From Escherichia coli (GTDB lineage: Bacteria > Pseudomonadota > Gammaproteobacteria > Enterobacterales > Enterobacteriaceae), in the NCBI RefSeq assembly GCF_044647545.1, contig NZ_CP172818.1: a DNA stretch of 64,000 bases; one strand, 5' to 3'. Below the pieces are notes generated by a model that worked only from the letters and a program-made list of their open reading frames with translations, was not told the origin of the DNA and did no database searches. Positions 6,268-42,788 of the stretch are shown piece by piece. The translations under genes and the position numbers were made by a program. How positions within the stretch are numbered: the first letter of the stretch is position 1; each line of letters begins with the position of its first letter.

Positions 6268-7632
6268 TTGATTACACATATTAGCCCGCTTGGCTCCATG
6301 GATATGTTGTCGCAGCTGGAAGTGGATATGCTTAAACGCACCGCCAGCAGCGACCTCTATCAACTGTTTCGCAACTGTTCACTTGCCGTACTGAACTCCG
6401 GTAGTTTGACCGATAACAGCAAAGAATTGCTGTCTCGTTTTGAAAATTTCGATATTAACGTCCTGCGCCGTGAACGCGGCGTAAAGCTGGAACTGATTAA
6501 TCCCCCGGAAGAGGCTTTTGTCGATGGGCGAATTATTCGCGCTTTGCAGGCCAACTTGTTCGCGGTTCTGCGTGACATTCTCTTCGTTTACGGGCAAATC
6601 CATAACACCGTTCGTTTTCCCAATCTGAATCTCGACAACTCCGTCCACATCACTAACCTGGTCTTTTCCATCTTGCGTAACGCTCGCGCGCTGCATGTTG
6701 GTGAAGCGCCAAATATGGTGGTCTGCTGGGGCGGGCACTCAATTAACGAAAACGAGTATTTGTATGCCCGTCGCGTCGGGAATCAGCTGGGCCTGCGTGA
6801 GCTGAATATCTGCACCGGCTGTGGTCCGGGAGCGATGGAAGCGCCGATGAAAGGTGCTGCGGTCGGACACGCGCAGCAGCGTTACAAAGACAGTCGCTTT
6901 ATTGGTATGACAGAGCCGTCGATTATCGCCGCTGAACCGCCTAACCCGCTGGTCAACGAATTGATCATCATGCCAGATATCGAAAAACGTCTGGAAGCGT
7001 TTGTCCGTATCGCTCACGGTATCATTATCTTCCCTGGCGGTGTGGGTACAGCAGAAGAGTTGCTGTATTTGCTGGGAATTTTAATGAACCCGGCCAACAA
7101 AGATCAGGTTTTACCATTGATCCTCACCGGCCCGAAAGAGAGCGCCGACTACTTCCGCGTACTGGACGAGTTTGTCGTGCATACGCTGGGTGAAAACGCG
7201 CGCCGCCATTACCGCATCATCATTGATGACGCCGCTGAAGTCGCTCGTCAGATGAAAAAATCGATGCCGCTGGTGAAAGAAAATCGCCGCGACACAGGCG
7301 ATGCCTACAGCTTTAACTGGTCAATGCGCATTGCGCCAGATTTGCAAATGCCGTTTGAGCCGTCTCACGAGAATATGGCTAATCTGAAGCTTTACCCGGA
7401 TCAACCCGTTGAAGTGCTGGCTGCCGACCTGCGCCGTGCGTTCTCCGGTATTGTGGCGGGTAACGTAAAAGAAGTCGGTATTCGCGCCATTGAAGAGTTT
7501 GGTCCTTATAAAATCAACGGCGATAAAGAGATTATGCGTCGTATGGATGACCTGCTACAGGGTTTTGTTGCCCAGCATCGTATGAAGTTGCCAGGCTCAG
7601 CCTACATCCCTTGCTACGAAATCTGCACGTAA
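6268..7632 (+). CDS. ppnN: Nucleotide 5'-monophosphate nucleosidase, LOG family
   Basis: 454-aa ORF recognised as PpnN (YgdH); contains the LOG-family motif region [10 protein letters not shown]. Confidence 0.85.
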
Positions 7633-11771: not shown

Positions 11772-11858
11772 GCGTGCCGGATGCAAACGATTATCAACAC
11801 ATTGAATTTAATGCACTTATATGCCGGATAAGACACGGCTAGCGTCGCATCCGGCATT
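11772..11858. repeat. REP-like extragenic palindromes
   Basis: gccggatgc ... gcatccggc motifs typical of E. coli REP elements, in the convergent xni/fucO intergenic region. Confidence 0.55.
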
Positions 11859-25851: not shown

Positions 25852-25926
25852 AGCACCTCAGAATTAAAAAGGGCGAGGTTTCCCTCACCCTGTCGTATCC
25901 GTCAAAACGGTATACAGAATAACACA

Positions 25927-27024
25927 TCAGCCGCTAAAGACGTTACCTGCGCCCGGGGCGGTTTTCAGCACCCAAACACGTCCATAGTGGTTGTACCAAC
26001 CTGCGCGGTGTCCGGCTTCCGGCCCGATACCTTGATAAATATCGAAGTGTTGGCCTTTGATTGCACCACCGACATCCAACGCCACCATCAGCCGTAGTTC
26101 GTACTGACCGTTAAATTTGCCGTTATTATCCAGCAGCGGCACTTCTGCCAGTAAGGTTGTACCAGGCGGGATAATGGAACGATCGGACGCAACTGAAGCG
26201 CGACCAACCAGCGGCACCGCACTTGCCCCTTTCACCGGAGCAAAAGATTGCGGTTTAAAGAAGACGAAAGACGGGTTCTGTTCCAGCAGCTCGCGAACCT
26301 CGGCTTCACTGTGTGTTTCACCCCAGTGACGAATCGCCTGCATCGACATATCTTCTTTTTTCACTTCGCCACGGTCGATCAGCACCTTACCAATGCTGCG
26401 ATAGGCATGACCGTTTTTCCCTGCATAGCTGAAAAAGTTAAGCGGACTGCCATCACCAAAGTCGATATACCCACTACCCTGCACATCCATAATGAAGTTA
26501 TCCATCAGAGAGTTGCTGTAAGCGAGGATGTATTTATCGCTCAATGCCCCCGCGTAGATCTCCGCACGAGACGGCAGACGACCACGTTTTGGCGGCATAC
26601 GGTAAATCGGATACTGAAACTCGCCCTGGCGGGTATGGCGCGCCTGAATTACTGGCGTGTAATAACCGGTAAACTGCACGTTACCATAGTTGTCGGCACC
26701 TTCCATCTGCCAGGCATCAATGCCGAACTGGCGCATATTGCGGGTATCACCGCCTGCGCGCAGCCACTCTTGCACCGCGTTATAAACATTACTCTGGTTG
26801 CCATACAGACGCGGTGACGAATTACGGATATGGTTAATTTGCTCGGCAAAATCACCGGCGTTAATCGGCGCGCCAACGGCATCTGGCTGGTTCACCAGAG
26901 AGAAAGGCTGGGTAAATTTCCCGTCTTTATATTGCTGTCCGCGATCGGTTGGTTTGGAAGAGCAGGCGGCAAGCATTGCCACAACCGTGCCCATAAGAAG
27001 GTACTTTACCCAACGTCCTTTCAT
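25927..27024 (-). CDS. mltA: Membrane-bound lytic murein transglycosylase A
   Basis: ORF-track ORF extends to 27306 through the tRNA genes; the real 365-aa product starts MKGRWVKYLLMGTVVAMLAACSS (lipoprotein signal) at 27024. Confidence 0.9.
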   Translation of the reverse strand: MKGRWVKYLLMGTVVAMLAACSSKPTDRGQQYKDGKFTQPFSLVNQPDAVGAPINAGDFAEQINHIRNSSPRLYGNQSNVYNAVQEWLRAGGDTRNMRQFGIDAWQMEGADNYGNVQFTGYYTPVIQARHTRQGEFQYPIYRMPPKRGRLPSRAEIYAGALSDKYILAYSNSLMDNFIMDVQGSGYIDFGDGSPLNFFSYAGKNGHAYRSIGKVLIDRGEVKKEDMSMQAIRHWGETHSEAEVRELLEQNPSFVFFKPQSFAPVKGASAVPLVGRASVASDRSIIPPGTTLLAEVPLLDNNGKFNGQYELRLMVALDVGGAIKGQHFDIYQGIGPEAGHRAGWYNHYGRVWVLKTAPGAGNVFSG

Positions 27025-27191
27025 TGTTCTCTTCTTCAGGTTAAAAAATAAGGCGCAACGAAGATAACAAACCGCCGCGTTTAATGAAATGAGCAGCCTC
27101 TCCCTGACGCAAATTTTGCACAAAAACCAGGCTTTAGTGATTTGTTTTTGCTCAAAATCATACCAAATCCGTGATCTGGGTAAAAAAAAGG

Positions 27192-27219
27192 TTGCATGAA
27201 AACGCGAGCGGAGTATAGT
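27192..27219 (+). promoter_or_regulatory. Putative sigma70 promoter of the metZWV tRNA operon
   Basis: TTGCAT - 16 bp - TATAGT about 14 bp upstream of the first tRNA, preceded by an A-tract (UP-element-like). Confidence 0.5.
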
Positions 27220-27232
27220 GCGCATCCACGGA

Positions 27233-27309
<77 letters not shown>

Positions 27310-27342
27310 ATTAAAATTTGATGAAGTAAAGCAGTACGGTGA

Positions 27343-27419
<77 letters not shown>

Positions 27420-27452
27420 ATCAAAATTTAATGAAGTAAAGTAGTACGGTGA

Positions 27453-27529
<77 letters not shown>

Positions 27530-30500
27530 ATTATCTGAATACCCAAGTTTTCACAATCGTTTTTTTTATTTAAATCTTTCCTGAATCACAAAGTTTTTTA
27601 TCTCCCTTCCTCGAATAATCAATTACACTAAATTATCCCTTTCTGTATACTCAATCCCCGATATCCTTGTAATGATATTTTCATTACATCTAAATTCCCA
27701 ACGTTCAACTAAACACATCCACCCCAAAACATTTCTTCTTCAATCACCTAATAAACCCCTCATCCACAACTCCCCCCATTGATGATCAACACATCCATCA
27801 TCACAAATATTTATACTAATAAATCTCCACTCAAAAAAACAAAAAACAATGATGAATCGACTCATAAAATATCTTCAATTATACAAATGAATCCACTTTT
27901 CACAACTAATCTTTTTTCAAAACTAAAACTCAACATCAAAACAATAACCTTCCCATTTTTCCAATATCGTACCAACACAATACGTTTACCTTTAACCCAC
28001 CATCACTCACCCATACCATTTTCATCCATGATACACCGATATTTTCATCCCGAAATAATCCAATGATAAATTCCCAACCATTTGAATTAATCCCAACCAT
28101 TATTACAATAATACTATTCCTCCACGAAATCAATATTTCTATCCCCTCCCGAATCTCGATATTATTTTCACACCAACACAATAACTTCCCCTATAACAAT
28201 CTTCCCAACCCAAATAATCTCTAATCATATTCTATTTAACAATCCCACATTATTCTTAATAATAAATTAAAATTATTCTCTCTACAACCCAAAACACTCT
28301 AAAACACTACCAAACATTTTTATACACACTCACTTCAAAAACCACCCCAAAAATACTTACTGTATTTATATTTTAAATTATGAATTTCTTTAACCATCAC
28401 CCCTGATGATAAACCGAAACACACATAAATTTTTTCAATTCAAATCAACCCACCCATCACCAACAACCAAACAACATCCACACATATCTAAACTAAATTA
28501 TCCCCTCACTTTACGATTTCAACAATAAATCACAACTTACCAACATATATACTAAAAAATCAAATAATTACCCATTTTTTTCAACACATTCCCAATTTCC
28601 CTCTCACACTTTTGAAATAAAATAACAACATCTCTTCCCACATCCAATCCTGTACCCTCCTACCTAACAAAAAACGAATCCTACTCAAAATCCGATTTTC
28701 CAATAAACCGACTTACCAACACCAATAAAAACAACTTTTCCCTACAAATTTATACTTTAATTAAAACGAATCAAAATATCAATAACTCTCTACTTAATTC
28801 TTACATAAAATTTTAATAATATATCTTATTCATTTTTATTCTCCCTGATTAATATTTTTAATTACACTCACAAACCGTAACCCCATATATAATTTTTCTC
28901 ACCCACCATTCAAGAATACCCTCCCCCTCCGTTCCATAACATCCCCCCATAACCATTTCCTTCATGAATTAACACTTAAAATTCATCAAAAGATAACCAA
29001 TACAAACAATCTACCAAAAAAACAACATCACTCCTACATCAATTCAATATTTTATTCAATACTAATTGAATTAACAATATTCTTTAATGATTTACATCCC
29101 AATCTAACAATAAACAATTATATTCATACTATGGATTTACAAAACTATACGATATCTTCTAACTTATGATTAAAATTACTCATTAAATCATAAGATCTTA
29201 TCAAATTAAATTCATATCATTATACTACTACTTTTTCTTTTTTTATTTTAACCGATGTAACTACTCATTAAAAACAAAATCACTATGATTTCATCTAACA
29301 TAACAAATTATCCTTAACCACATTTTATATTCTTCTTCCACCAACTTCCTCGTTATGAGATTACATAATAACACCATCTCTTTTATCTTAAACAAATCCC
29401 ATTATACTACCCCCCTCATTTTTTATAATCAAAACTTCAAATATTCCCTATTTTTTACATCAAAAACATTAAACATTAAAAACAAATATTATCACACGAT
29501 CAATAATCTATTCTTTTCAATAATACATCACATCTATATTATCCATTCATTTTATCTTTTATATTTTATAAACCATTTACTACCATTCAATATTCACATT
29601 CAAACAGTACCTAAAATCTTTCCAAGTTTTCTTAATCCCTACACACTTCTTATCAAATCCATATCTAAATAAAATGTAATACATCTTTTACACCAAATCT
29701 CCCCAAAATCCCATTTACAATATTTCCTTCAAACAGTATTAAAAACATCCATCACATATCCATTATTATCCATATCCACCAACATGACTTTATACCGATA
29801 ATATTTATATTTTATCAATTTAATATAATTCCCCACTCTTTTTATTCTCCTCAATCAACCCATATCGATTTTAAACTAAAGATACCAATTATCCAGATTT
29901 AATATTCTCTTTACCACAATCCTTAACATCTCTCTCTTCACTCTATTTATCAACGTATATCCCTATACTATCCTCATACTTCACTACAATACTCTTCACC
30001 ACTCATCAGTTAAATTTAAAATACAACAACACAAAGTAATAAATAAAAAATACCACTTCGACACACACCTATTCAACTTTCTTCCACCAAACCCAAACTA
30101 ATAAATTGAATCAACCCATAAATCCCATCTTCACCCCATAACAAACACGAATCCATTCATAAATCATAAACAAACACATACTACAAATAAAAAAAATCCA
30201 ACTCCTACCCCCAATAATGATTAACACCCCAAATAACAATCTTTATACTTTTCTTTTACATACATCGATACACCACCCACCACCAACATACTAATCATCA
30301 TTTCTTTCCATTTTCCCCCAAACCACAATACCATTCTCTACACCCATAAAATCATCCATAATACTCTCCCCCAATCACACCTAAACCGACGTAAACAAAA
30401 ATCACCAGATTTTAACCAAAAAACTCACTCCAACTCATAAAAAATAACCGAACAACCGAATATATCATCCAATGACATGAAAATTAAAAACCCAATAAAA

Positions 30501-31641
30501 GAATGATCAACCAAACCATCATCACAATCATTAATAACACAACCTATAAAAACTAATATCTAACTAAATTAACGTCTTTTTAACACCATAATAACCCACA
30601 ACAATTCCTCTAAACCTTATTTAACTGATCCCAAATATTTATCGACATTTACACACCAATAATCTCTTTTAAATAAAATTCTCCCAGACACCCATAAAAC
30701 AATAAAGAAAAACATATTTATCCTCTTTTTTTTAATAACCAAGAATTTACCAAACAAACATAATAACAAACAAACAAACCAAAACAATAAACAATATTTT
30801 TATTATGAAACCAAAATAATTAATCCATATCATCATCTAAACATCCACCTACATCACACATACAACAACAAGAAATAAACCTCATCTAAAAAAAATCCAC
30901 TTTCTTTTATTTCATATAAATTTATATATAAAATTAATACTACGAATAAAATATATTTTCTCTAAATACATATTTAAAACAACAATACTCAATTTATGAA
31001 TTAAAATTCTTTCTCAAAAATCATAATCACAATATTCTTTTTTTTATACATAAAACAAAAAAAATAATCATCATAACTTAAATTAAATAATCTCACTTAT
31101 AAAACCGATAACTTTATTTTTTAATAATAAAAAGCATAACAATGAATTCAATTATTTAAAACAAATAAAATTCATCAAATTAAACTAAATTATAATAACA
31201 CAATATTTACAATTTATCAAAAAAAATTATTATTTTACCAAAAAATAAAACAAAAAACAAAAATTTAATTTTTCAAATACACAAACAACAACAAAACAAC
31301 AAATACATAATAATATAACGGGTGTTTTTTTGTTTCTTGTCTCCCATAAAAGAGCCAGCCATCTCAGACGACATTCCATATTTTTTTTTAACCACCCACC
31401 CAGAAATATAACCTCTCCATTCACACTTACACAATTATTTCATACTTATATCAATACTCCCAAAAAAAACAACACTCAAATAATAATACTCAAACAATAA
31501 CATACAAAATAACAACAAACAAACGAATTTTTAATTAAAAACTTTATTTTCAACGACATTCAAAATCCACATCATCACAAAACATCTAATATTCATAAAT
31601 TTATCTATCAACGAAATATAAATTCATAATAAATAAAAACA
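27530..31641. other. About 4.1-kb non-native, apparently non-coding block with extreme G-depletion on the + strand (A/C/T-rich, AT-rich); origin and function unknown
   Basis: By eye, most 60-nt lines contain 0-3 G. No ORF longer than about 105 codons in any frame, and those present translate to low-complexity peptides. No obvious long direct or inverted repeats, no integrase, no duplication of the tRNA 3' end. Fills the whole gap between metV and the amiC stop, where K-12 has only tens of bp (from memory). Confidence 0.85.
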
Positions 31642-32895
31642 TTATCCCCTTCTCGCCAGCGTCGCCCCATCGGCAAAATACGCTTTAATTCCCGCAAGAA
31701 TAGACTCCGCAACTTCCTGCTGGAAAGTCGCCGTTTTCAGTTTACGCTCTTCCTCAACGTTACTGATAAACGCCGTTTCGACCAGAATGGAGGGAATATC
31801 TGGTGCCTTTAGTACGGCAAACCCAGCCTGTTCAACTTGATTTTTATGCAGCTTGTTGATTTTACCGAGCTTATTCAGCACCGCTTTACCAAACTTAAGG
31901 CTGTCGGCAATGGTCAGCGACTGCACCATATCGAACATAGTGTGGTCGACATAGCGGTCACCGCTTTTGCTTACGCCACCAATCAAGTCCGAGGCGTTCT
32001 GGGTTTGTGCCAGATATTTTGCCGCAGTACTGGTTGCACCTTTGGTTGAGAGCGCAAACACAGAGGAACCGCTCGGCTGACGACTGGTAAAGGCGTCGGC
32101 ATGGATAGAGACAAACAGGTCAGCACGCTGTTTCTGGGCTTTTGCTACGCGCACTTGCAACGGAATGAAGATGTCTTCATTGCGCGTCATGTACACCTTC
32201 ATATTGCCCTCTTTCTCGATCAGAGAGCGCAGACGGCGAGCTATTTGCAATACCACGTCTTTTTCGCGCGTTTTGTATTTCCCCACCGCACCGGAGTCTT
32301 CGCCACCGTGGCCAGGGTCAAGCATAATGACAATCGGACGATCCCGCCCAGCTTTACCCGGTTGTGGACCACTTTGTGCTGGCGGCACCTGCTTTTCGAG
32401 GTCGCCTTTGTTGTAATCCTCCAGCAGCGCCAGCAGCGGGTCCTGCATGTCCTGAGCATTGGCAGGATAGAGATCCATCACCAGACGCTCTTTAAACCCG
32501 GCGACCGGCGCAAGGGCAAACAGCTGCGGTTTTACGTTTTGCTTTAATTCAAAAACCATGCGTACGGTTTGCGGGTCAAATTGCCCGACGCGCGCCGACT
32601 TGATGAACGGGTCGTCTGCACGAATTTGTGCCGCCATCCCCTTGAGTACCGAGTTCAGGTTTACATCTTCGATATCCACCACCACGCGTTCCGGGTTACT
32701 CAACGCGAACTGCTTATATTTCAGCTGACGATTTGATTCTACCGTCACGCGGGTGTAGCTGGACGCAGGCCAGACGCGCACCGCCACGACCTGGCTGACC
32801 GCAGCCAGACTGACCTGACTTACGCTCAATAGCCACATGGCACCCGCGCCTTGCAGTAAACGACGACGGCTGATTGCAGTGTTGGATCCTGACAT
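31642..32895 (-). CDS. amiC: N-acetylmuramoyl-L-alanine amidase AmiC
   Basis: ORF-track ORF 31642-32985; the 417-aa product starts [23 protein letters not shown] (Tat twin-arginine signal) at 32895. Confidence 0.9.
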
Positions 32896-34539: not shown

Positions 34540-36366
34540 TTATTCCCGCGAACTAAACAACGCCGCCAGACCACTGCGCCGCTCGGTGCGCGTGGCAATT
34601 GCCGCACTTAAAATGCGCTCATCGGCATACAGCGACAGACGGCGACGCGCGCGGGTCACTGCGGTGTAAACCAGCTCTCGCGTTACTACCGGCGTGCGTT
34701 GACTCGGTAAAATCAACGCCGCATGGTCGAACTCCGATCCCTGCGATTTATGTACCGTCATCGCCCACGTCGTTTCGTGCTCTGGCAGGCGACTCGGTTG
34801 CACAGACTTAATATTGCCGTCCGGCATCGCAAACCAGACGCGCGTCCCCTGCCCACGATCCAGCGCAATACCGATATCGCCATTAAACAACCCAAGCGCG
34901 CTGTCATTACGGGCAATCATCACCGGTCGGCCTTCGTACCAACGAGAGTGCGGATGACGATGAATTTTGCGCTTCTGTTGCATAAACTGCTCAATTCGCT
35001 CATTCAGTCCAGCCACGCCAAACGGCCCTTCCCGCAGGGCGCACAAAAGCTGGTACTCATTGAACGCCTGAATGATTAAATCCGGCTCGGCACGCGCTTG
35101 CAGCAGATCCAGATAACGTCCGTAACCCGCAAGAGCTTCCTCAAGCATCGCAATATAATCTTCGCCGCTCTGTAAAAGCCGTTTTTCGATATCAGAAAAA
35201 TCCTGCTGAAAAACGGTTTTCACTGCCGTTTTATCACCACGGTTGATCGCCGCAGCTAACTGACCAATGCCAGAATCGCTGCCGAAACGATAGCTTTTTT
35301 GCAACAGGCAGAGACTGTCGCGCAAAGATGCCGCTTCTGTGCCAGTTCCTGCCGGAACGTGAGTTCCCGTCAGGCGGCTTAGCTGCCCGGCACGCTCGGC
35401 GGTAAAGCCGGCATTGGCATAAGCACAAATATCGCCCAGCACAGCCCCAGCCTCAACCGAGGCCAGTTGATCACGATCGCCGAGAAAGATCACTCGCGCA
35501 TGATCGGGCAAGGCGTCTATCAGTCTCGACATCATCGGCAGATCGATCATTGACGCTTCATCTACCACCAGCACATCAAGATGCAGCGGGTTACCGGCAT
35601 GATGGCGTAAACGCTGGCTACCTGGCTGCGCGCCCAGCAATCGGTGCAAAGTACTGGCATCTTCCGGAATGCGTTTCTTTTGTTCATCGGTCAGCGGTAA
35701 CTGGCGCAAAGCCTTGCCGAGAGATTCGGTTAAGCGCGCGGCAGCTTTACCCGTTGGTGCAGCCAGACGGATACGGCAGCGTTCGCCGTCGGCCATTTGA
35801 ATTAACGCTGCCAGCAACTTCGCTACGGTGGTCGTTTTACCGGTGCCAGGGCCGCCGGAAATCACTGAGATCCGCCGCGTCAGCGCCACTGCCGCCGCAA
35901 CTTTTTGCCAGTTAATTTCATCGCTTACTGGAAAAAGTTTGTCCAGGGTTTGCGCCAGTAGTGCTTCATCAACCTCAATGGCATGATTCACTTCGTTGAA
36001 AAAGCGTGCCACTGTGCGCTCGTTACACCACATGCGATTCAAATAAAGACGATCGCCACAGAGGATCATCGGCGTTGGTTCATCTCCCCGGCTGACCGCT
36101 TGTGAAGCCAGCAAGCATTCTTCCCAATTTTGTAGCTCACCGATTTCACTGACACAGGTCGCCAACAGCGGATGCGATGCCTCGTTATTTTCCAGTCGTG
36201 AAAGCGGCAAACAAACGTGTCCCTCTCCGGCATCATGACTTAACAGTGCCGCCGCGAGGGTGACGGCAGGATGTTCATCTCCCGCCACGGTCAGGGCAAA
36301 CTGCACGTCCAGCGGGCGTAGCTGTTTGTGCTCCACAGCTTCCAGTAATTGCTTTTGCAATTTCAT
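34540..36366 (-). CDS. recD: Exodeoxyribonuclease V alpha subunit
   Basis: 608-aa ORF with Walker A motif [10 protein letters not shown]; the start codon overlaps the recB stop (TAATG). Confidence 0.92.
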
Positions 36367-39300
36367 TACGCCTCCTCCAGGGTCATACCGGCAAACATCT
36401 CATCCATCAGGTCAATCAACCCGGCGTTGGGTCGGGTCGCGTAGATCCCTTGTTGCGGATGTTCTTTATCAACGCCACGCAGGAACAGATAAATAACGCC
36501 GCCAAAGTGGCGCTCATAGTCGTAATCAGCAATGCGATGGCGCAGATAACGGTGCAGCGCCAGGGTATAAAGCTGATATTGCAGATCATAGCGGTGCGCC
36601 TGCATTGCCGCTGCCATAGCCTGTTGGGTGTAAGCCGAACTGTCTTCACCCAGCCAGTTGGATTTATAGTCGAGCAGGTAATAACGCCCTTCGTGGCGGA
36701 ACACCAGGTCGATAAAGCCTTTTAACATGCCACGTACCTGCATGAACTCCAGCGGCGGGCAGCCAGCGGATAGCGGGTCAAACTGGCGAATTAGTGCATC
36801 AAGCTGACTGGCGATAAGCGGTTCACTAATCGGCAGGTAAAACTCCATCTCCACCTGTTTATCGCGATCGGAAAGCTGATTCAGGCTAACACCCGTTTCA
36901 TTGAGAGGTGCCTGGAGGACAGCCGTGATCCACTCAGTCAACACCGGTTCCCACTGCGGTTCAAAGCCGCCGAGCTCCAGTTTTTCCTGTACCCAGTTCG
37001 GGTCAACCGGCTGGGTAAAATCGAGGTCTTCAAACAAACTGTGCAAGAATGTCCCCGGTGACGCACCGCGCGGGAACTGATGCGGTGTTAACGTCGGTTC
37101 TTCAACGACGCTGACCACGCCTGCGGCATCAACATCCAACCGTGGCATCAGATCCTGAGCGATACCGTGACCACGCTGCTGCAAACCGGAGTAGCTGGTG
37201 ACACGCCAGTTATCGCCGGGCAATCGTTGTAGCGTCCTCGCATTCAGTTCTGCAGTTAATGCATCATTAACCTGCCAGGGCTGGTTATCACCAGTTTGTG
37301 CCGTTTGCCAGGCAATATCATCATCGCATAACGCTTCAATACAGGTGCGAAGCCCTGCCGCATCTTGCGGTTCCCCTTTTTGCAGCAAACGCCCGAGCGC
37401 ACTTTGGTGGACGTCGGTATCACCTTTTTTATCGCCACGACGGCGCACCAGCGGTGCAACGCCGAGACTGCAATGCCAAACCGAACGCGTCAGCGCCACG
37501 TAAAGCAAACGCAGATCTTCCGCCAGACGTTCGGCCTCCGCGAGGTCGACGCTTTCTGGCGCAGCATTAAGATCCAGAACAGCCTCAAACGAGTGGCGAT
37601 CGTGATAAAACGCCTGATCCTGGACGCGGAAATTGGTGATAAACGGCAGCCAGACCAATGGATATTCCAGCCCTTTCGATTTGTGGATCGTGACAATCTG
37701 CACGAGATGTTTATCACTTTCGAGACGCATTTGTTGGCTGGAGGCATTACTGTCTGGCTCGAGGATATGTTGCGATAACCAGCGTACCAGCGCATGTTCA
37801 CTTTCCAGCTGCGTGCCGGCTTCTTGTAGCAATTCGCTGATATGCAAGATATCGGTAAGACGCCGCTCACCGCCTGCTGTTGCCAGCAAGTTTTCTGCAA
37901 TGTTACGCGCCGACATCAGCGCCCGCAGCATCGGCATAACGCCACGTTTGCGCCAGATTTGCCGATAACCATCGAACTCTTCGACTACCGCATCCCACGC
38001 ATGTTCGTCATTATTCAGCGTTTCAATATCCAGCGCATTCAGCCCCATCATTGACGTTGCCAGCGCACTGCGCAGGGTGTTCTCACGTTCGGGTGTCATC
38101 ACCGCCTGCAACAGCCAAAGCATCTCCTGTGCTTCCAGAGTTTCAAAAACACTGTCGCGGTTCGAAAGGTAAACGGAAGGGATTTCCAGCAGCGTTAAGG
38201 CATCGCGCACCTGAGCGGCCTCCTGGCGGCTGCGCACCAGCACACTGATGTCCGAAGCACGCACCGGACGCGCGTCGTCGCCGTTCATCAGCAACGCTTC
38301 GCCCCGCTGTCCGGCTTGTAGCCAGTCGCGGATTTGCGCAGCACATACCTGCGCCATGGTACTTTGATAGTCGCCAACGCCGCAGCTTTCGCCTTCCATC
38401 AGCCACATTTTCATCGCAGGCTGCGTTTCACCTTTAAACACAAAACGTAACGCCTGATTTTTCCCGGCTGATTTCACTGGAATAAAAGGAATTTCGCGAA
38501 ACATGAACGCGTCATCAGTCTGACTGAAAAGTTTGTTAACGCTGTTCACCATTCCCGGTGCGGAACGCCAGTTGGTGTCTAAGGTGTAGTGGGCGTGAAC
38601 TTCGCTACGCGCCTTCATATAAGTGAAGATATCCGCACCCCGGAATGCATAAATGGCCTGTTTCGGGTCGCCAATCAGCAACAATGCGGTTTCCGGCTGA
38701 TGGTGCCAGATACGGCGAAAAATTCGGTACTGCTGGGGGTCGGTATCCTGAAATTCATCGATCATTGCCACCGGGAATCGCGTACGGATCGCCGCTGCCA
38801 ATACCTCGCCGCTTTCACTACGCAGCGCGGAATCGAGCCGACTTAACATGTCATCAAAACCCAATTCGCCACGGCGGCGTTTTTCACGCGCTACTGTTTC
38901 GCGGATCTCAGCTAATGCGCGAGTGATCACCAGATCGCGGATCGACAATGGTTCTGCAAGCAGTTGATCGATCGCCTCAAACAGTGGATGTCGCGGGGTT
39001 TCCCCCCGGCTTTCGTGCGATCTTCTAAGAAACGCTGAGAGAATTTTTCCAGCGACTCTGGCAACTGATAGCTGTTGGTCTCTTCTTCTGCCCAGGCGCT
39101 GATCTTGTCGATCCATTTAGCCTGATTGCTACGGTTAAACTTGCGTCGATCAATACCAGAAGATTCGATCAGCGCATCCAGTTCACCCACCGCGTCGCGC
39201 CACTGCTGTTTTACCGTATCAATACGCGCCACAATTTGCGCGTGGCGGGAAGCCAGCGTTTCATCATCGGGCGGCGGCGCTTTGATAACCGGCGCTTCGC

Positions 39301-39907
39301 CTTGCAGATAACGATTAATATCGCGCAGTAACGCCTGCGGCCCTTTCCAGGTTTCAAAGACGACCTGGGCAATTTCACGCGGCAGCGGGTAGCAGTGGCG
39401 ACGCCAGAAATCGGCGCAGGCCTGGTAACGTAGCAGAGACTCATCTTCAATCAGCTGCTGCTCAAACAGCATGCCGGATTCAAAGGCATTCAGGTTGAGC
39501 ATGCGCTGGCAAAAACCGTGAATAGTAAAGACTGCCGCTTCATCCATCTGCCGTTCGGCTAACAACAACCACTGCGCGGCTTGCGCTTTATCGTCGATCT
39601 CTTCCAGCAGGCGTTTGTACAGTGGATTGTCGGTGGTTTCACGCAGACAGGCGATGCGCAACTCGTGGATATTGCTACGGATACGACCGCGCAATTCTGC
39701 CGTGGCAGCCTCGGTAAAGGTGACCACCAGCAGTTCTTCAACGGTCAGCGGGCGGGGAAAGGCGGCAGAACCGCCTAGTCCAAGTAACAGGCGCAAATAG
39801 AGCGCCGCAATCGTAAAGGTTTTGCCTGTGCCGGCAGAGGCTTCAATCAGGCGCTCGCCCTGTAAGGGCAAGCGCAAAGGATCTAGTGTCTCGGCGACAT
39901 CACTCAT
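36366..39907 (-). pseudogene. recB: Exodeoxyribonuclease V beta subunit RecB, disrupted by a -1 frameshift (or a homopolymer sequencing error)
   Basis: Two overlapping same-strand ORFs, 38927-39916 (329 aa, RecB N-terminus with Walker A ASAGTGKTFT) and 36366-39116 (916 aa, rest of RecB). The frames switch at a run of 6 C at 39000-39005 (+ strand); 7 would give ...RTKAGGETPRHPLFEAIDQLL... in one frame. Total span is 3542 bp against 3543 bp expected for 1180 aa plus stop. Confidence 0.85.
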
Positions 39908-42788
39908 TCTTTTCACTCATCAGGGGCATTGTTTGCTGCAACGCGCTGACGTTCTCCCACACTTTCCAGCCTTCAGGATGCACATATTCGGCTTTCCCGT
40001 TCTGGCTGCCGGAAATCTGCGACAGAATAGCCATACCTTGCGGCTCGACCACCGCCTGATGGAAGAAATCAGCAAGTTTTTGCGGCGTCAGCAGTTTTAT
40101 CTGGGCCACGATTTTATCACGCGAATCGAAGCGCATATTGCCGCGATCGAAATCTTTACTTAACTTCGATGCTTCTTCGCCGAGCGTTTGCGGTGCCTGC
40201 AGCATCTGGGTAATTACCGCCTGCTGGATTTGCGCAAACTCTTCTGGCTTCATCGCCCGCAGTTTCGCTTCTGCGGTCGGGAAAAACGCCTTGTAACGCT
40301 CCCACAAGAATGAAGGCTGTTTATCATTGCTTTGCAACAGGAAGCCCATGCCCCACTGACGCCCCACGCTCATTGGAAACGCAAACACGGCATAGCCCAA
40401 CTGTTCTTCGGTACGCAACTGATTGTAGAACCACGGCTGTACGATCTGCCCCAACAGAGAACTATACGCTGAACTGGTGTATTCATCGTAGCCAGTCGGT
40501 ACAAATACCGCTGCCAGTGCGGAGTCGGTGCTGTTACCGGCTTTTTCAAAGATGACGGATTGTTTTTTATCGACCACGACATCTTTGTTACGACACCACT
40601 CCGAACCATCAGCGCCCAACTGTTTTTGCACATCGCGTGCCAGCGTTGTTGCCTGGGCCTCGGTCATGTTGCCGATAACCATAAACTCTGGTCGAGCCCC
40701 TGATTTTAAGGCGTCGCGATAGGCCAGAACTTCTTTCAAAGTAATGGAGGGCAAAATTTTGCGCCGTTCATCTCGCGAGAAGTATGGTACTTGCGAGAGC
40801 ATCTGCGCGGGCATAATCGCCTGCTCGAACGCTTTGCCCTTTTCTGCAGAATCCATCATCTGGTTATACCAGGACTTCGCCTGCTCAAGCTGATCTTCCG
40901 TAGCGGTATAGCTAAAGTACCCCTCGAGCAATGCCTGGAACAGCTGCGGCAGGCGCTGGGTGTAACCATTGGCATTAACCATAAGGCCGTTGTTAGCATT
41001 GGTGGAAAAACTTATGCCACCAACCGACGCCTGGTTGCTTAACTGATCAAGCGCCAGCCCTGCGAGATAATCATTGAGCGCAAACATCACCTGATTGCGG
41101 GCGCTATCCATGGCTTTTGGATTACGCAAAATCAGGCTGACATCAGCTTTGGGTTCGCTGGAAAAATAACGGCTTGGCGCATACACCACACGCAGATTCG
41201 ACTCATCAACAATCAGCTCTGGATGGTCATATTTCTTCTCTGACTTAATCAGCGAGAAATCGTCAGGAATATAGGGGTTAAGCTCTGGCAAAGAGAGCGC
41301 AATGTCGGCGGCTTTTTTCTGCCAGTCAGCGAAAGTTTGTGCGCTAATTTTATCGACCTGATACGGCGCATCGACAAAGTAAGCCGTTTTGTTGTGCGGC
41401 TCTTTCGGGCTGATATACCAGATACGCGCATTCTGCGGCGTCATCATCGCCAGGCGTTCTTTTACTGCTTTAGCGTCGTACCGATCGGCAATATTGACTG
41501 CATCCAGCGTATGCTCAACAGGAACGCGAATCATGGTATCTGCCAGCCATTCGACGTAATCCATATCACGGGTGATTGACGGATAACGGAAGTCGATATC
41601 CAGCACATTCGCCAGTTCATCGAAGTATTGTTTATCAATCCCTTTTTCGCGTAACAGATTGAGGTAGCTAAAAATGGCCGCCACAACCTGATCGCGATTC
41701 GCCAGACCTTTATCGGTTAAAGACGCAGAGATCGCTAATACGCCGCTGTTGCCGTTGACGATAGGATCGGAATTGGCGCTAATACCCTCAACTAATCCCT
41801 GCTTTTGCAGCCAGTCAGAAAGTGTACCTGGGCTGCGATTACCAATCAGATAGGTAATCAATTCATCCGTTTTACTACGGAACTTCGCTGAATTGTTATC
41901 GATGCGAAACTCAACGCGCAGAACTTTACGCGGCAACGCCGGGACGTAATGAATGATAATGCCCTTTTGCGCGTCGGTGACTACCGGCACGGTGATTTCC
42001 GGTTTTTTGCTCTCTTTGTTCGGCACGCGACCAAAGGTGTCCGCCGCCATTTTCGCCAACTCCGGCAACGGTTTATTGCTGTAAATAACCGCCTTCATCA
42101 GATTGGCGGAATAGTACTTCTCGTGGAAATCTTTCAGCGCCTGCTGTACCGGATTACCTGGTTTGTCGCTTAAAGTTTCGAGGTTACCACCAGAAAACTT
42201 TGAACCGGGGTGTGCCGGGTTAATGGTTTCTGCGCTGACCTGTGCCATGCGCATCCCGTCACGCGTACGCGCCATGGTTAATTCGGCATTCACTGCATTA
42301 CGTTCACGTTCGGCGTATTTCTTGTCGAGCAAGGGTTCTGCAATAGCATCGGCCAGGCGGTCTACCGCACCGGGTAAGGCATCGTTCTCAACTTCCAGAT
42401 AGAAAGCCGTGCGATACGGTGCCGTGCTGGCATTGTGACTGCCACCGTGCATTTTGAGATATTCGGCCAGACTGTCAGCCTGCGGGTACTTTTTCGACCC
42501 CATCAGACTCATGTGTTCAAGGTAATGCGCCAGCCCCTGATACGCCTCGGGATCTTCCAGCGACCCAACGGGCACCACCAGCGCCGAGAGCGATTTAACC
42601 GCCTGCGGATCAGAAACCAGCAAGACCACCATACCGTTATCCAGACGTATAGCCTGATACTGGCGGTTATCTTTATCACTTTTACGGATGGTTTCCTGAA
42701 TCGGCTGCCATCCCGTTTCTGCCTGACTTAAGGGTGCCCAAAGGGCAACAAACAACAATAATGCTTTGAACCAGATGCTGCGGGGCAT
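39900..42788 (-). CDS. ptrA: Protease III (pitrilysin), periplasmic M16 zinc metalloprotease
   Basis: 962-aa ORF with signal peptide and inverted zinc-binding motif HYLEH; recognised as PtrA; 3' end overlaps the recB start by 8 nt. Confidence 0.92.
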   Translation of the reverse strand: MPRSIWFKALLLFVALWAPLSQAETGWQPIQETIRKSDKDNRQYQAIRLDNGMVVLLVSDPQAVKSLSALVVPVGSLEDPEAYQGLAHYLEHMSLMGSKKYPQADSLAEYLKMHGGSHNASTAPYRTAFYLEVENDALPGAVDRLADAIAEPLLDKKYAERERNAVNAELTMARTRDGMRMAQVSAETINPAHPGSKFSGGNLETLSDKPGNPVQQALKDFHEKYYSANLMKAVIYSNKPLPELAKMAADTFGRVPNKESKKPEITVPVVTDAQKGIIIHYVPALPRKVLRVEFRIDNNSAKFRSKTDELITYLIGNRSPGTLSDWLQKQGLVEGISANSDPIVNGNSGVLAISASLTDKGLANRDQVVAAIFSYLNLLREKGIDKQYFDELANVLDIDFRYPSITRDMDYVEWLADTMIRVPVEHTLDAVNIADRYDAKAVKERLAMMTPQNARIWYISPKEPHNKTAYFVDAPYQVDKISAQTFADWQKKAADIALSLPELNPYIPDDFSLIKSEKKYDHPELIVDESNLRVVYAPSRYFSSEPKADVSLILRNPKAMDSARNQVMFALNDYLAGLALDQLSNQASVGGISFSTNANNGLMVNANGYTQRLPQLFQALLEGYFSYTATEDQLEQAKSWYNQMMDSAEKGKAFEQAIMPAQMLSQVPYFSRDERRKILPSITLKEVLAYRDALKSGARPEFMVIGNMTEAQATTLARDVQKQLGADGSEWCRNKDVVVDKKQSVIFEKAGNSTDSALAAVFVPTGYDEYTSSAYSSLLGQIVQPWFYNQLRTEEQLGYAVFAFPMSVGRQWGMGFLLQSNDKQPSFLWERYKAFFPTAEAKLRAMKPEEFAQIQQAVITQMLQAPQTLGEEASKLSKDFDRGNMRFDSRDKIVAQIKLLTPQKLADFFHQAVVEPQGMAILSQISGSQNGKAEYVHPEGWKVWENVSALQQTMPLMSEKNE

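Follow-up and report, generated by a model that had tools for sequence, protein, structure and literature searches.

A G-depleted block between metV and amiC in an Escherichia coli genome record is almost certainly the native islet with bases missing

Between metV and amiC in the Escherichia coli contig NZ_CP172818.1 (assembly GCF_044647545.1) lies a long sequence in which G is scarce on one strand. This raises the question of whether it is foreign or designed DNA, a product of mutation, or a fault in the record. The window, meaning the whole 64,000 nt stretch of the contig that was analysed, reads from mltA through metZ-metW-metV and a 4,112-nt block to amiC on the minus strand. The G-depleted block has a GC content of 26–31%, with a GC skew of -0.81 to -0.83 over 28–31 kb; elsewhere in the window GC is approximately 52% and the skew is near zero. 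There are 113 G in the 4,112 nt of the block, compared with 998 in the 5,566 nt of the native islet described below. The preliminary description placed amiC on the minus strand with its stop codon at 31642–31644 (tta on the plus strand), and the window does match strain FDAARGOS_497 from the annotated end of amiC. It also reported that G-depleted sequence reaches this stop codon, which the skew and the G count bear out. The features of the interval are as follows.

27233–27309, 27343–27419 and 27453–27529, plus strand: metZ, metW and metV, three tRNA-Met(CAT) genes, intact (ARAGORN)
27530–31641, no strand assigned: corrupted form, 4,112 nt long, of the native metV-amiC islet of 5,566 nt (megablast, global alignment, longest common subsequence)
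27586–28323, minus strand: remnant of a 2-hydroxyacid/phosphoglycerate dehydrogenase-like gene, 948 nt native and 738 nt here (coordinate mapping, RefSeq, NCBIfam, ORF list)
28378–28833, minus strand: remnant of a KpsF/GutQ-family sugar-phosphate isomerase gene, 597 nt native and 456 nt here (mapping, RefSeq, NCBIfam, ORF list)
28836–29752, minus strand: remnant of a PatB/MalY-family C-S lyase gene, 1176 nt native and 917 nt here (mapping, RefSeq, NCBIfam, ORF list)
29752–30910, minus strand: remnant of a MalX-like PTS IIBC transporter gene, 1581 nt native and 1159 nt here (mapping, RefSeq, NCBIfam, ORF list)
30931–31453, minus strand: remnant of a LicT/BglG-family (PRD) antiterminator gene, 825 nt native and 523 nt here (mapping, NCBIfam)
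31316–31367, plus strand: patch of metV terminator/spacer of the islet-less (K-12) type, in which the G's are kept (spacer comparison)
31543–31557, minus strand: remains of the amiC-side intrinsic terminator hairpin, which in intact strains is GTCGGCTTGAAAAATAAGCCGAC followed by a T-tail (coordinate mapping)
31642–32895, minus strand: amiC, intact and the same as in the closest relatives, stop codon at 31642–31644 (comparison with FDAARGOS_497)

A megablast search of 26800–32600 against 5,426 complete E. coli genomes gave matches with 83% query cover and approximately 83.5% identity, and in the genomes matched five genes are annotated in this interval, from metV to amiC. In strains CFSAN061771 (L002) and FDAARGOS_497 (L004/L005) the metV-amiC interval is 5,566 nt and holds five minus-strand genes (CA902_RS04840–RS04860 and EGY17_RS03285–RS03305, respectively). 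According to RefSeq and NCBIfam these encode a dehydrogenase-like protein, a KpsF/GutQ isomerase, a PatB/MalY C-S lyase, a MalX-like PTS IIBC transporter and a LicT/BglG antiterminator. The islet is present in 1,689 of the 5,426 complete genomes. About 3,353 match the islet-less arrangement, in which a 73-nt K-12-type spacer with the metZWV terminator takes its place. The five-gene metV-amiC islet is an ordinary sugar-utilisation islet of the lineage to which the window belongs.

The metV locus is a known hot spot for tRNA-associated genomic islands (PMC7545054), and like those islands the islet lies directly 3' of metV and is present in some strains and absent from others. Unlike integrase-type tRNA islands, neither the islet nor the block has an integrase, a direct repeat of the tRNA 3' end or a target-site duplication. 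In the RefSeq annotation of the intact islet there are five metabolic and regulatory genes and no integrase or transposase. The preliminary description had implied that marks of a natural insertion, such as target-site duplications, were lacking. A search of both the native islet and the block agrees, with no target-site duplication or terminal inverted repeats and only short repeats at chance level, none of them at the ends.

The block has the same position, orientation and gene order as the islet of FDAARGOS_497 and CFSAN061771, is colinear with it across all five genes and has near-identical flanks. It differs in lacking 1,461 bases, in having no open gene, in the loss of the terminator hairpin and in carrying an embedded 36–52-nt piece of islet-less sequence. 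The longest common subsequence of block and islet takes in 4,082 of the 4,112 bases of the block (99.3%), compared with approximately 3,080 for shuffled blocks. A global alignment gives 4,082 matching positions and 1,461 native bases that are deleted, with only 23 substitutions and 7 insertions besides. The block is therefore 1,454 nt shorter than its parent islet, 26% of the islet positions having been lost, and insertions and substitutions together amount to 0.7% of the block. The low identity between block and islet is due to deletions, rather than to substitutions. All five islet frames are broken in the block; the longest open reading frame listed for the block, at 105 aa, is unrelated to the islet proteins.

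Loss depends strongly on the base. G is deleted at 880 of 998 positions (88%), T at 315 of 1,601 (20%), C at 227 of 1,234 (18%) and A at 39 of 1,733 (2%), the deletions being read on one strand only. It depends also on the neighbours at -1, +1 and +2 (p from 4e-9 to 1e-16). Nearly all of the G's that are retained stand before A or T, and an isolated G is deleted in 73% of cases if A follows, in 89% if T follows and in 99% if C follows. Longer runs of T and C lose fewer bases, with none of 58 lost from T6–7 runs where approximately 12 would be expected, and A5–7 runs show 0–6% deletion. This dependence on base and neighbour, together with the sparing of runs, fits a trained caller rather than a uniform process. 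Coding and non-coding positions of the islet have like deletion rates, and the fraction of G deleted at codon positions 1, 2 and 3 (0.88, 0.91 and 0.86) has no codon periodicity. The loss of C and T climbs from left to right, starting near 10% in the left gene and reaching its highest values, 45% for C and 39% for T, in the antiterminator gene. Among non-G bases, deletions were found at 33% of sites that vary among natural islet alleles versus 24%, a weak and non-significant difference (p = 0.08).

The edges of the block are sharp. On the left the window is 100% identical to CFSAN061771 up to 27530, and the first deletions come straight after CAACCAA, 1–3 nt past the end of metV. The sequence at this edge, ATTATCTGAATACCC, is also similar to the K-12-type spacer over the initial 14 nt of the latter; islet sequence with deletions explains it equally well and it was therefore not counted. 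On the right, deletions can be detected as far as 31627. The native sequence then has no G before 31655, and from 31655 onward all G's in contexts with 99% deletion inside the block are retained. The right edge thus lies somewhere in 31628–31654, which is compatible with the amiC stop codon but is not proof of it. Both edges match the islet/backbone junctions within the resolution available, 3 nt on the left and 27 nt on the right. They fall at gene ends because that is where the islet/backbone junctions lie in every natural carrier.

The preliminary description held that amiC has no native-looking 3' flank and that the native spacer and terminator appeared to have been replaced or buried by an inserted block. 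Neither statement survives comparison with the lineage itself. The last 14 nt before the stop codon (31628–31641) are the same as the native flank of the lineage, and the last 100 nt or so are that flank minus approximately 15 single bases. What natively flanks amiC on its 3' side in the lineage is the islet's right end and not the K-12 spacer. The native terminator is still traceable about 100 nt past the amiC stop codon (7699–7677 in CFSAN061771), its stem destroyed by missing bases. Insertion into a K-12 background was rejected, as the window is 98% identical to K-12 and approximately 100% identical to islet-bearing strains; the block is the islet of the lineage with dropped bases.

Within the antiterminator gene remnant, a patch of sequence from the islet-less allele takes the place of an islet stretch. 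Positions 31316–31351 correspond to positions 15–50 of the K-12-type spacer with 35 of 36 bases identical (E 2e-14), and the likeness continues at approximately 90% to 31367, close to spacer position 63, giving a patch of 36–52 nt. Of the 32 non-deletion events in a wider alignment, 10 cluster at 31319–31354 and several of these create G's. In contrast to the 73-nt spacer of islet-less genomes, the patch is not intact, is situated approximately 3.8 kb from metV and lacks the final 10 nt or so, the right end of the block being of the islet type. Alignment with the K-12 spacer, as suggested in the preliminary description, does recover K-12-type bases, at 31316–31367, although that spacer is not the native state of the lineage. 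A natural islet variant with a K-12-like patch was considered and rejected, since the patch is absent from three divergent natural islet alleles, which have ordinary antiterminator coding sequence at that place. The patch sits on a 12-nt exact match between spacer and islet (7373–7384 in CFSAN061771), one of the two longest found; there is no patch at the other (6394–6405). In a MAFFT alignment the K-12 spacer did not fall at the patch, which leaves the 12-nt seed as the sole ground for anchoring. The surrounding 5' part of the natural antiterminator gene (7368–7404 in CFSAN061771) is itself about two-thirds identical to spacer positions 15–50, including the 12-nt match. This likeness to the metV terminator could be chance or a relic of an ancestral spacer.

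The flanks of the block have only three differences from FDAARGOS_497 in approximately 59.9 kb (about 99.995% identity). Two of these, a substitution at 1803 and a 1-nt deletion at 25880, are in 1–27529, and the 32,359 nt of 31642–64000 differ by a single 1-nt deletion at 39001. Identity to K-12 over the window is approximately 98%. Many other strains are 100.0% identical over 24.4 kb rightward, and strains with an identical right flank are also among the megablast matches listed (for example IMT16316 and Ecol_881), in which the islet is present. The islet is normal in every one of the closest complete genomes. Two Logan assemblies (L011 and L016, from runs DRR393831 and SRR18681712), traced through the recB fragment described below, have 0 mismatches to the window over 16–18 kb. 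The portion of the islet that they cover, the right 1.1–2.7 kb, is of normal base composition with deletions only in homopolymers or at CCWGG (Dcm) sites.

The recB gene (minus strand; ORFs 36366–39116 and 38927–39916) has a run of six C's at 38995–39009, where K-12 and all of the closest complete genomes have seven. This splits the gene into pieces of 326 aa and approximately 850 aa. The 326-aa fragment recurs in error-prone public data, where at least 34 blocks of run assemblies, spread over several lineages, contain it. The change from C7 to C6 is probably a recurrent homopolymer miscall, a real frameshift being less likely, and it suggests that the record is derived from nanopore data.

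The presence of a normal islet in the same lineage, flanks that carry three changes and the lack of codon phase in the deletions make the block a defect of the record. It is almost certainly a fault in the data rather than biology: in the record the native islet has lost roughly one base in four, including nearly all of its G's. Megablast did not find the corrupted sequence in the RefSeq complete E. coli genomes, an exact 44-mer of the block had no match in GTDB representative genomes or JGI metagenomes, and six block ORFs were not in the protein collection.

As to how the error arose, a consensus or polishing process that decided column by column between base and gap across the islet is the likely, if far from assured, origin. 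In such a process many rows of the pile-up would have lacked the islet, being either reads of a mixed sample or genomes, homologous or reference, supplied to an indel-only polisher of a nanopore assembly. The outcome of the vote would have been set by the base and its local context, with A kept, C and T mostly kept, G dropped and long homopolymers spared. Only the segment absent from islet-less genomes would have been touched, which would place the edges at the end of metV and at the amiC stop codon. The 73-nt spacer of the islet-less rows may have been anchored on a 12-nt match and have won the vote there, producing the patch at 31316–31367. Reference-guided consensus on K-12 over the whole window is a weakened version of this idea. 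The intergenic region between xni and fucO has a clean segment of approximately 40 nt at 11783–11822 that is not found in K-12, so the template cannot simply have been K-12 applied across the whole window.

Homopolish is an indel-only homology polisher which uses per-base matched counts, deletion counts and one-hot homopolymer length as features and makes no mismatch correction (PMC8011154). In the same study Racon, MarginPolish and HELEN were reported to introduce false deletions, and Homopolish was reported not to (PMC8011154). Like the action of homology polishers (PMC8011154), the changes in the block are indel-only, per-base, aware of homopolymer length and confined to where the pile-up would show gaps. 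Unlike reported polisher errors, which occur at far lower rates (PMC8011154), they remove 26% of the bases over 5.6 kb. The dependence on neighbouring bases seen in the block is not a stated feature of such polishers; the Homopolish features alone would not predict an effect of the +1 and +2 neighbours, which counts against naming a specific tool. So do the MAFFT result for the spacer and the non-significant excess of non-G loss at sites polymorphic among islet alleles, a comparison made to look for an origin in a pile-up of homologues.

The main rival to a consensus or polishing artefact is in silico editing, deliberate or accidental, in which a script or a sequence model rewrote the metV-amiC interval of a genuine genome. 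This is possible but rather unlikely, although such a corruption of the interval would give a similar picture. The coincidence of the edges with annotated feature ends is as it would predict, as is the absence of the exact sequence from the public collections searched. So too are changes that are almost purely deletions and keep the lengths of long homopolymers, unlike any raw-read profile. A model that had memorised K-12 could also emit the K-12 terminator patch. Against this, a simple script deleting each base at a set rate would not give the dependence on neighbours and homopolymers or the rise in C and T loss from left to right, nor would it place a patch of the other allele on a 12-nt seed match. 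A free-running generator, for its part, would not keep colinearity with the islet for 4.1 kb and then rejoin amiC exactly. The preliminary description had regarded boundaries of this kind as typical of engineered or in silico constructs; the region is indeed unnatural, and an in silico origin is still a live sub-option, but an insertion or a designed cassette is not what the sequence contains. It is improbable that the block is instead an unpolished gap fill, built on a single very poor long read or a few such reads of one strand and lying beyond the reach of later polishing. The strand-specific loss, the variation in error intensity along the block and the recB change, with its suggestion of a long-read origin of the record, would all agree with this. 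Raw errors of nanopore, PacBio and flow-chemistry sequencing, however, cluster as indels in homopolymers and include insertions and substitutions at appreciable levels, which is the opposite of a block with insertions and substitutions below 1%, T6–7 runs kept exactly and A5–7 runs nearly so (0–6% deletion). The nanopore-like assemblies of the lineage have only homopolymer and Dcm-site errors in the islet, and a gap fill leaves the K-12-type patch and the edges at the islet junctions unexplained. The bases ranked by loss, A << C ~ T << G, follow the ranking of their dyes by brightness in two-channel sequencing, but such fixed-cycle chemistry makes no deletions.

That the block is physically real DNA, whether an engineered G-poor cassette, the result of G-skipping degradation in vivo or deaminase-type hypermutation, is very improbable. 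Its strand-asymmetric G depletion does superficially resemble hypermutation or a G-less cassette, and its edges are sharp. The G's of the block are nevertheless deleted, C and T are also lost, and the structure of a designed promoter or cassette is absent. Deaminases, RIP and DGRs act by substitution and not by deletion, whereas here two G>A substitutions stand against 880 G deletions. Conversion of G to A, by hypermutation or in a bisulfite-like manner, was rejected on these grounds, the alignments showing deletions at non-conserved length and not transitions. No known process would strip a 5.6-kb segment of 1,461 single bases and leave its 60 kb of flanks with three changes. There are no scars, markers or foreign DNA, the native islet and the spacer patch together explaining all but approximately 30 bases, and a search of the block for FRT and loxP scars with up to 3 mismatches allowed found none. 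No open reading frames of the islet are left, the amiC terminator is destroyed, and independent data from the same lineage have a normal islet. It is least probable of all, to the point of being barely worth entertaining, that the block exists in living E. coli as an islet rewritten by strand-specific copying that skips G, for example during gap-filling under extreme dGTP starvation across a recombination intermediate. Real DNA of this kind would point to a mutational process not yet known, and nothing here supports that.

For quality control, the 4.1-kb stretch is unfit for annotation, for calls of islands or horizontal transfer based on composition, or for counting as a loss of the five genes. 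The combination of an ordered subsequence of the native allele, base- and context-dependent dropout, perfect flanks and an embedded fragment of the alternative allele can serve as a signature of base-versus-gap consensus failure at a presence/absence polymorphism.

Some smaller differences are seen in the remainder of the window. The G/A difference from FDAARGOS_497 at 1803, within gudP, is synonymous and looks like ordinary strain variation. At 25880, between tcdA and mltA, a GC-rich hairpin has lost one A from its loop, outside any homopolymer; relatives have gggcgagg-ttat-ccctcaccc, with tttccc here. In the same intergenic region, at approximately 25875–25891, about 145 nt are found only in K-12, while the xni-fucO intergenic region at 11783–11822 has its 40 or so extra nucleotides relative to K-12 in uncorrupted form. 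Both of these differences from K-12 are common to the close relatives and are therefore ordinary lineage variation.
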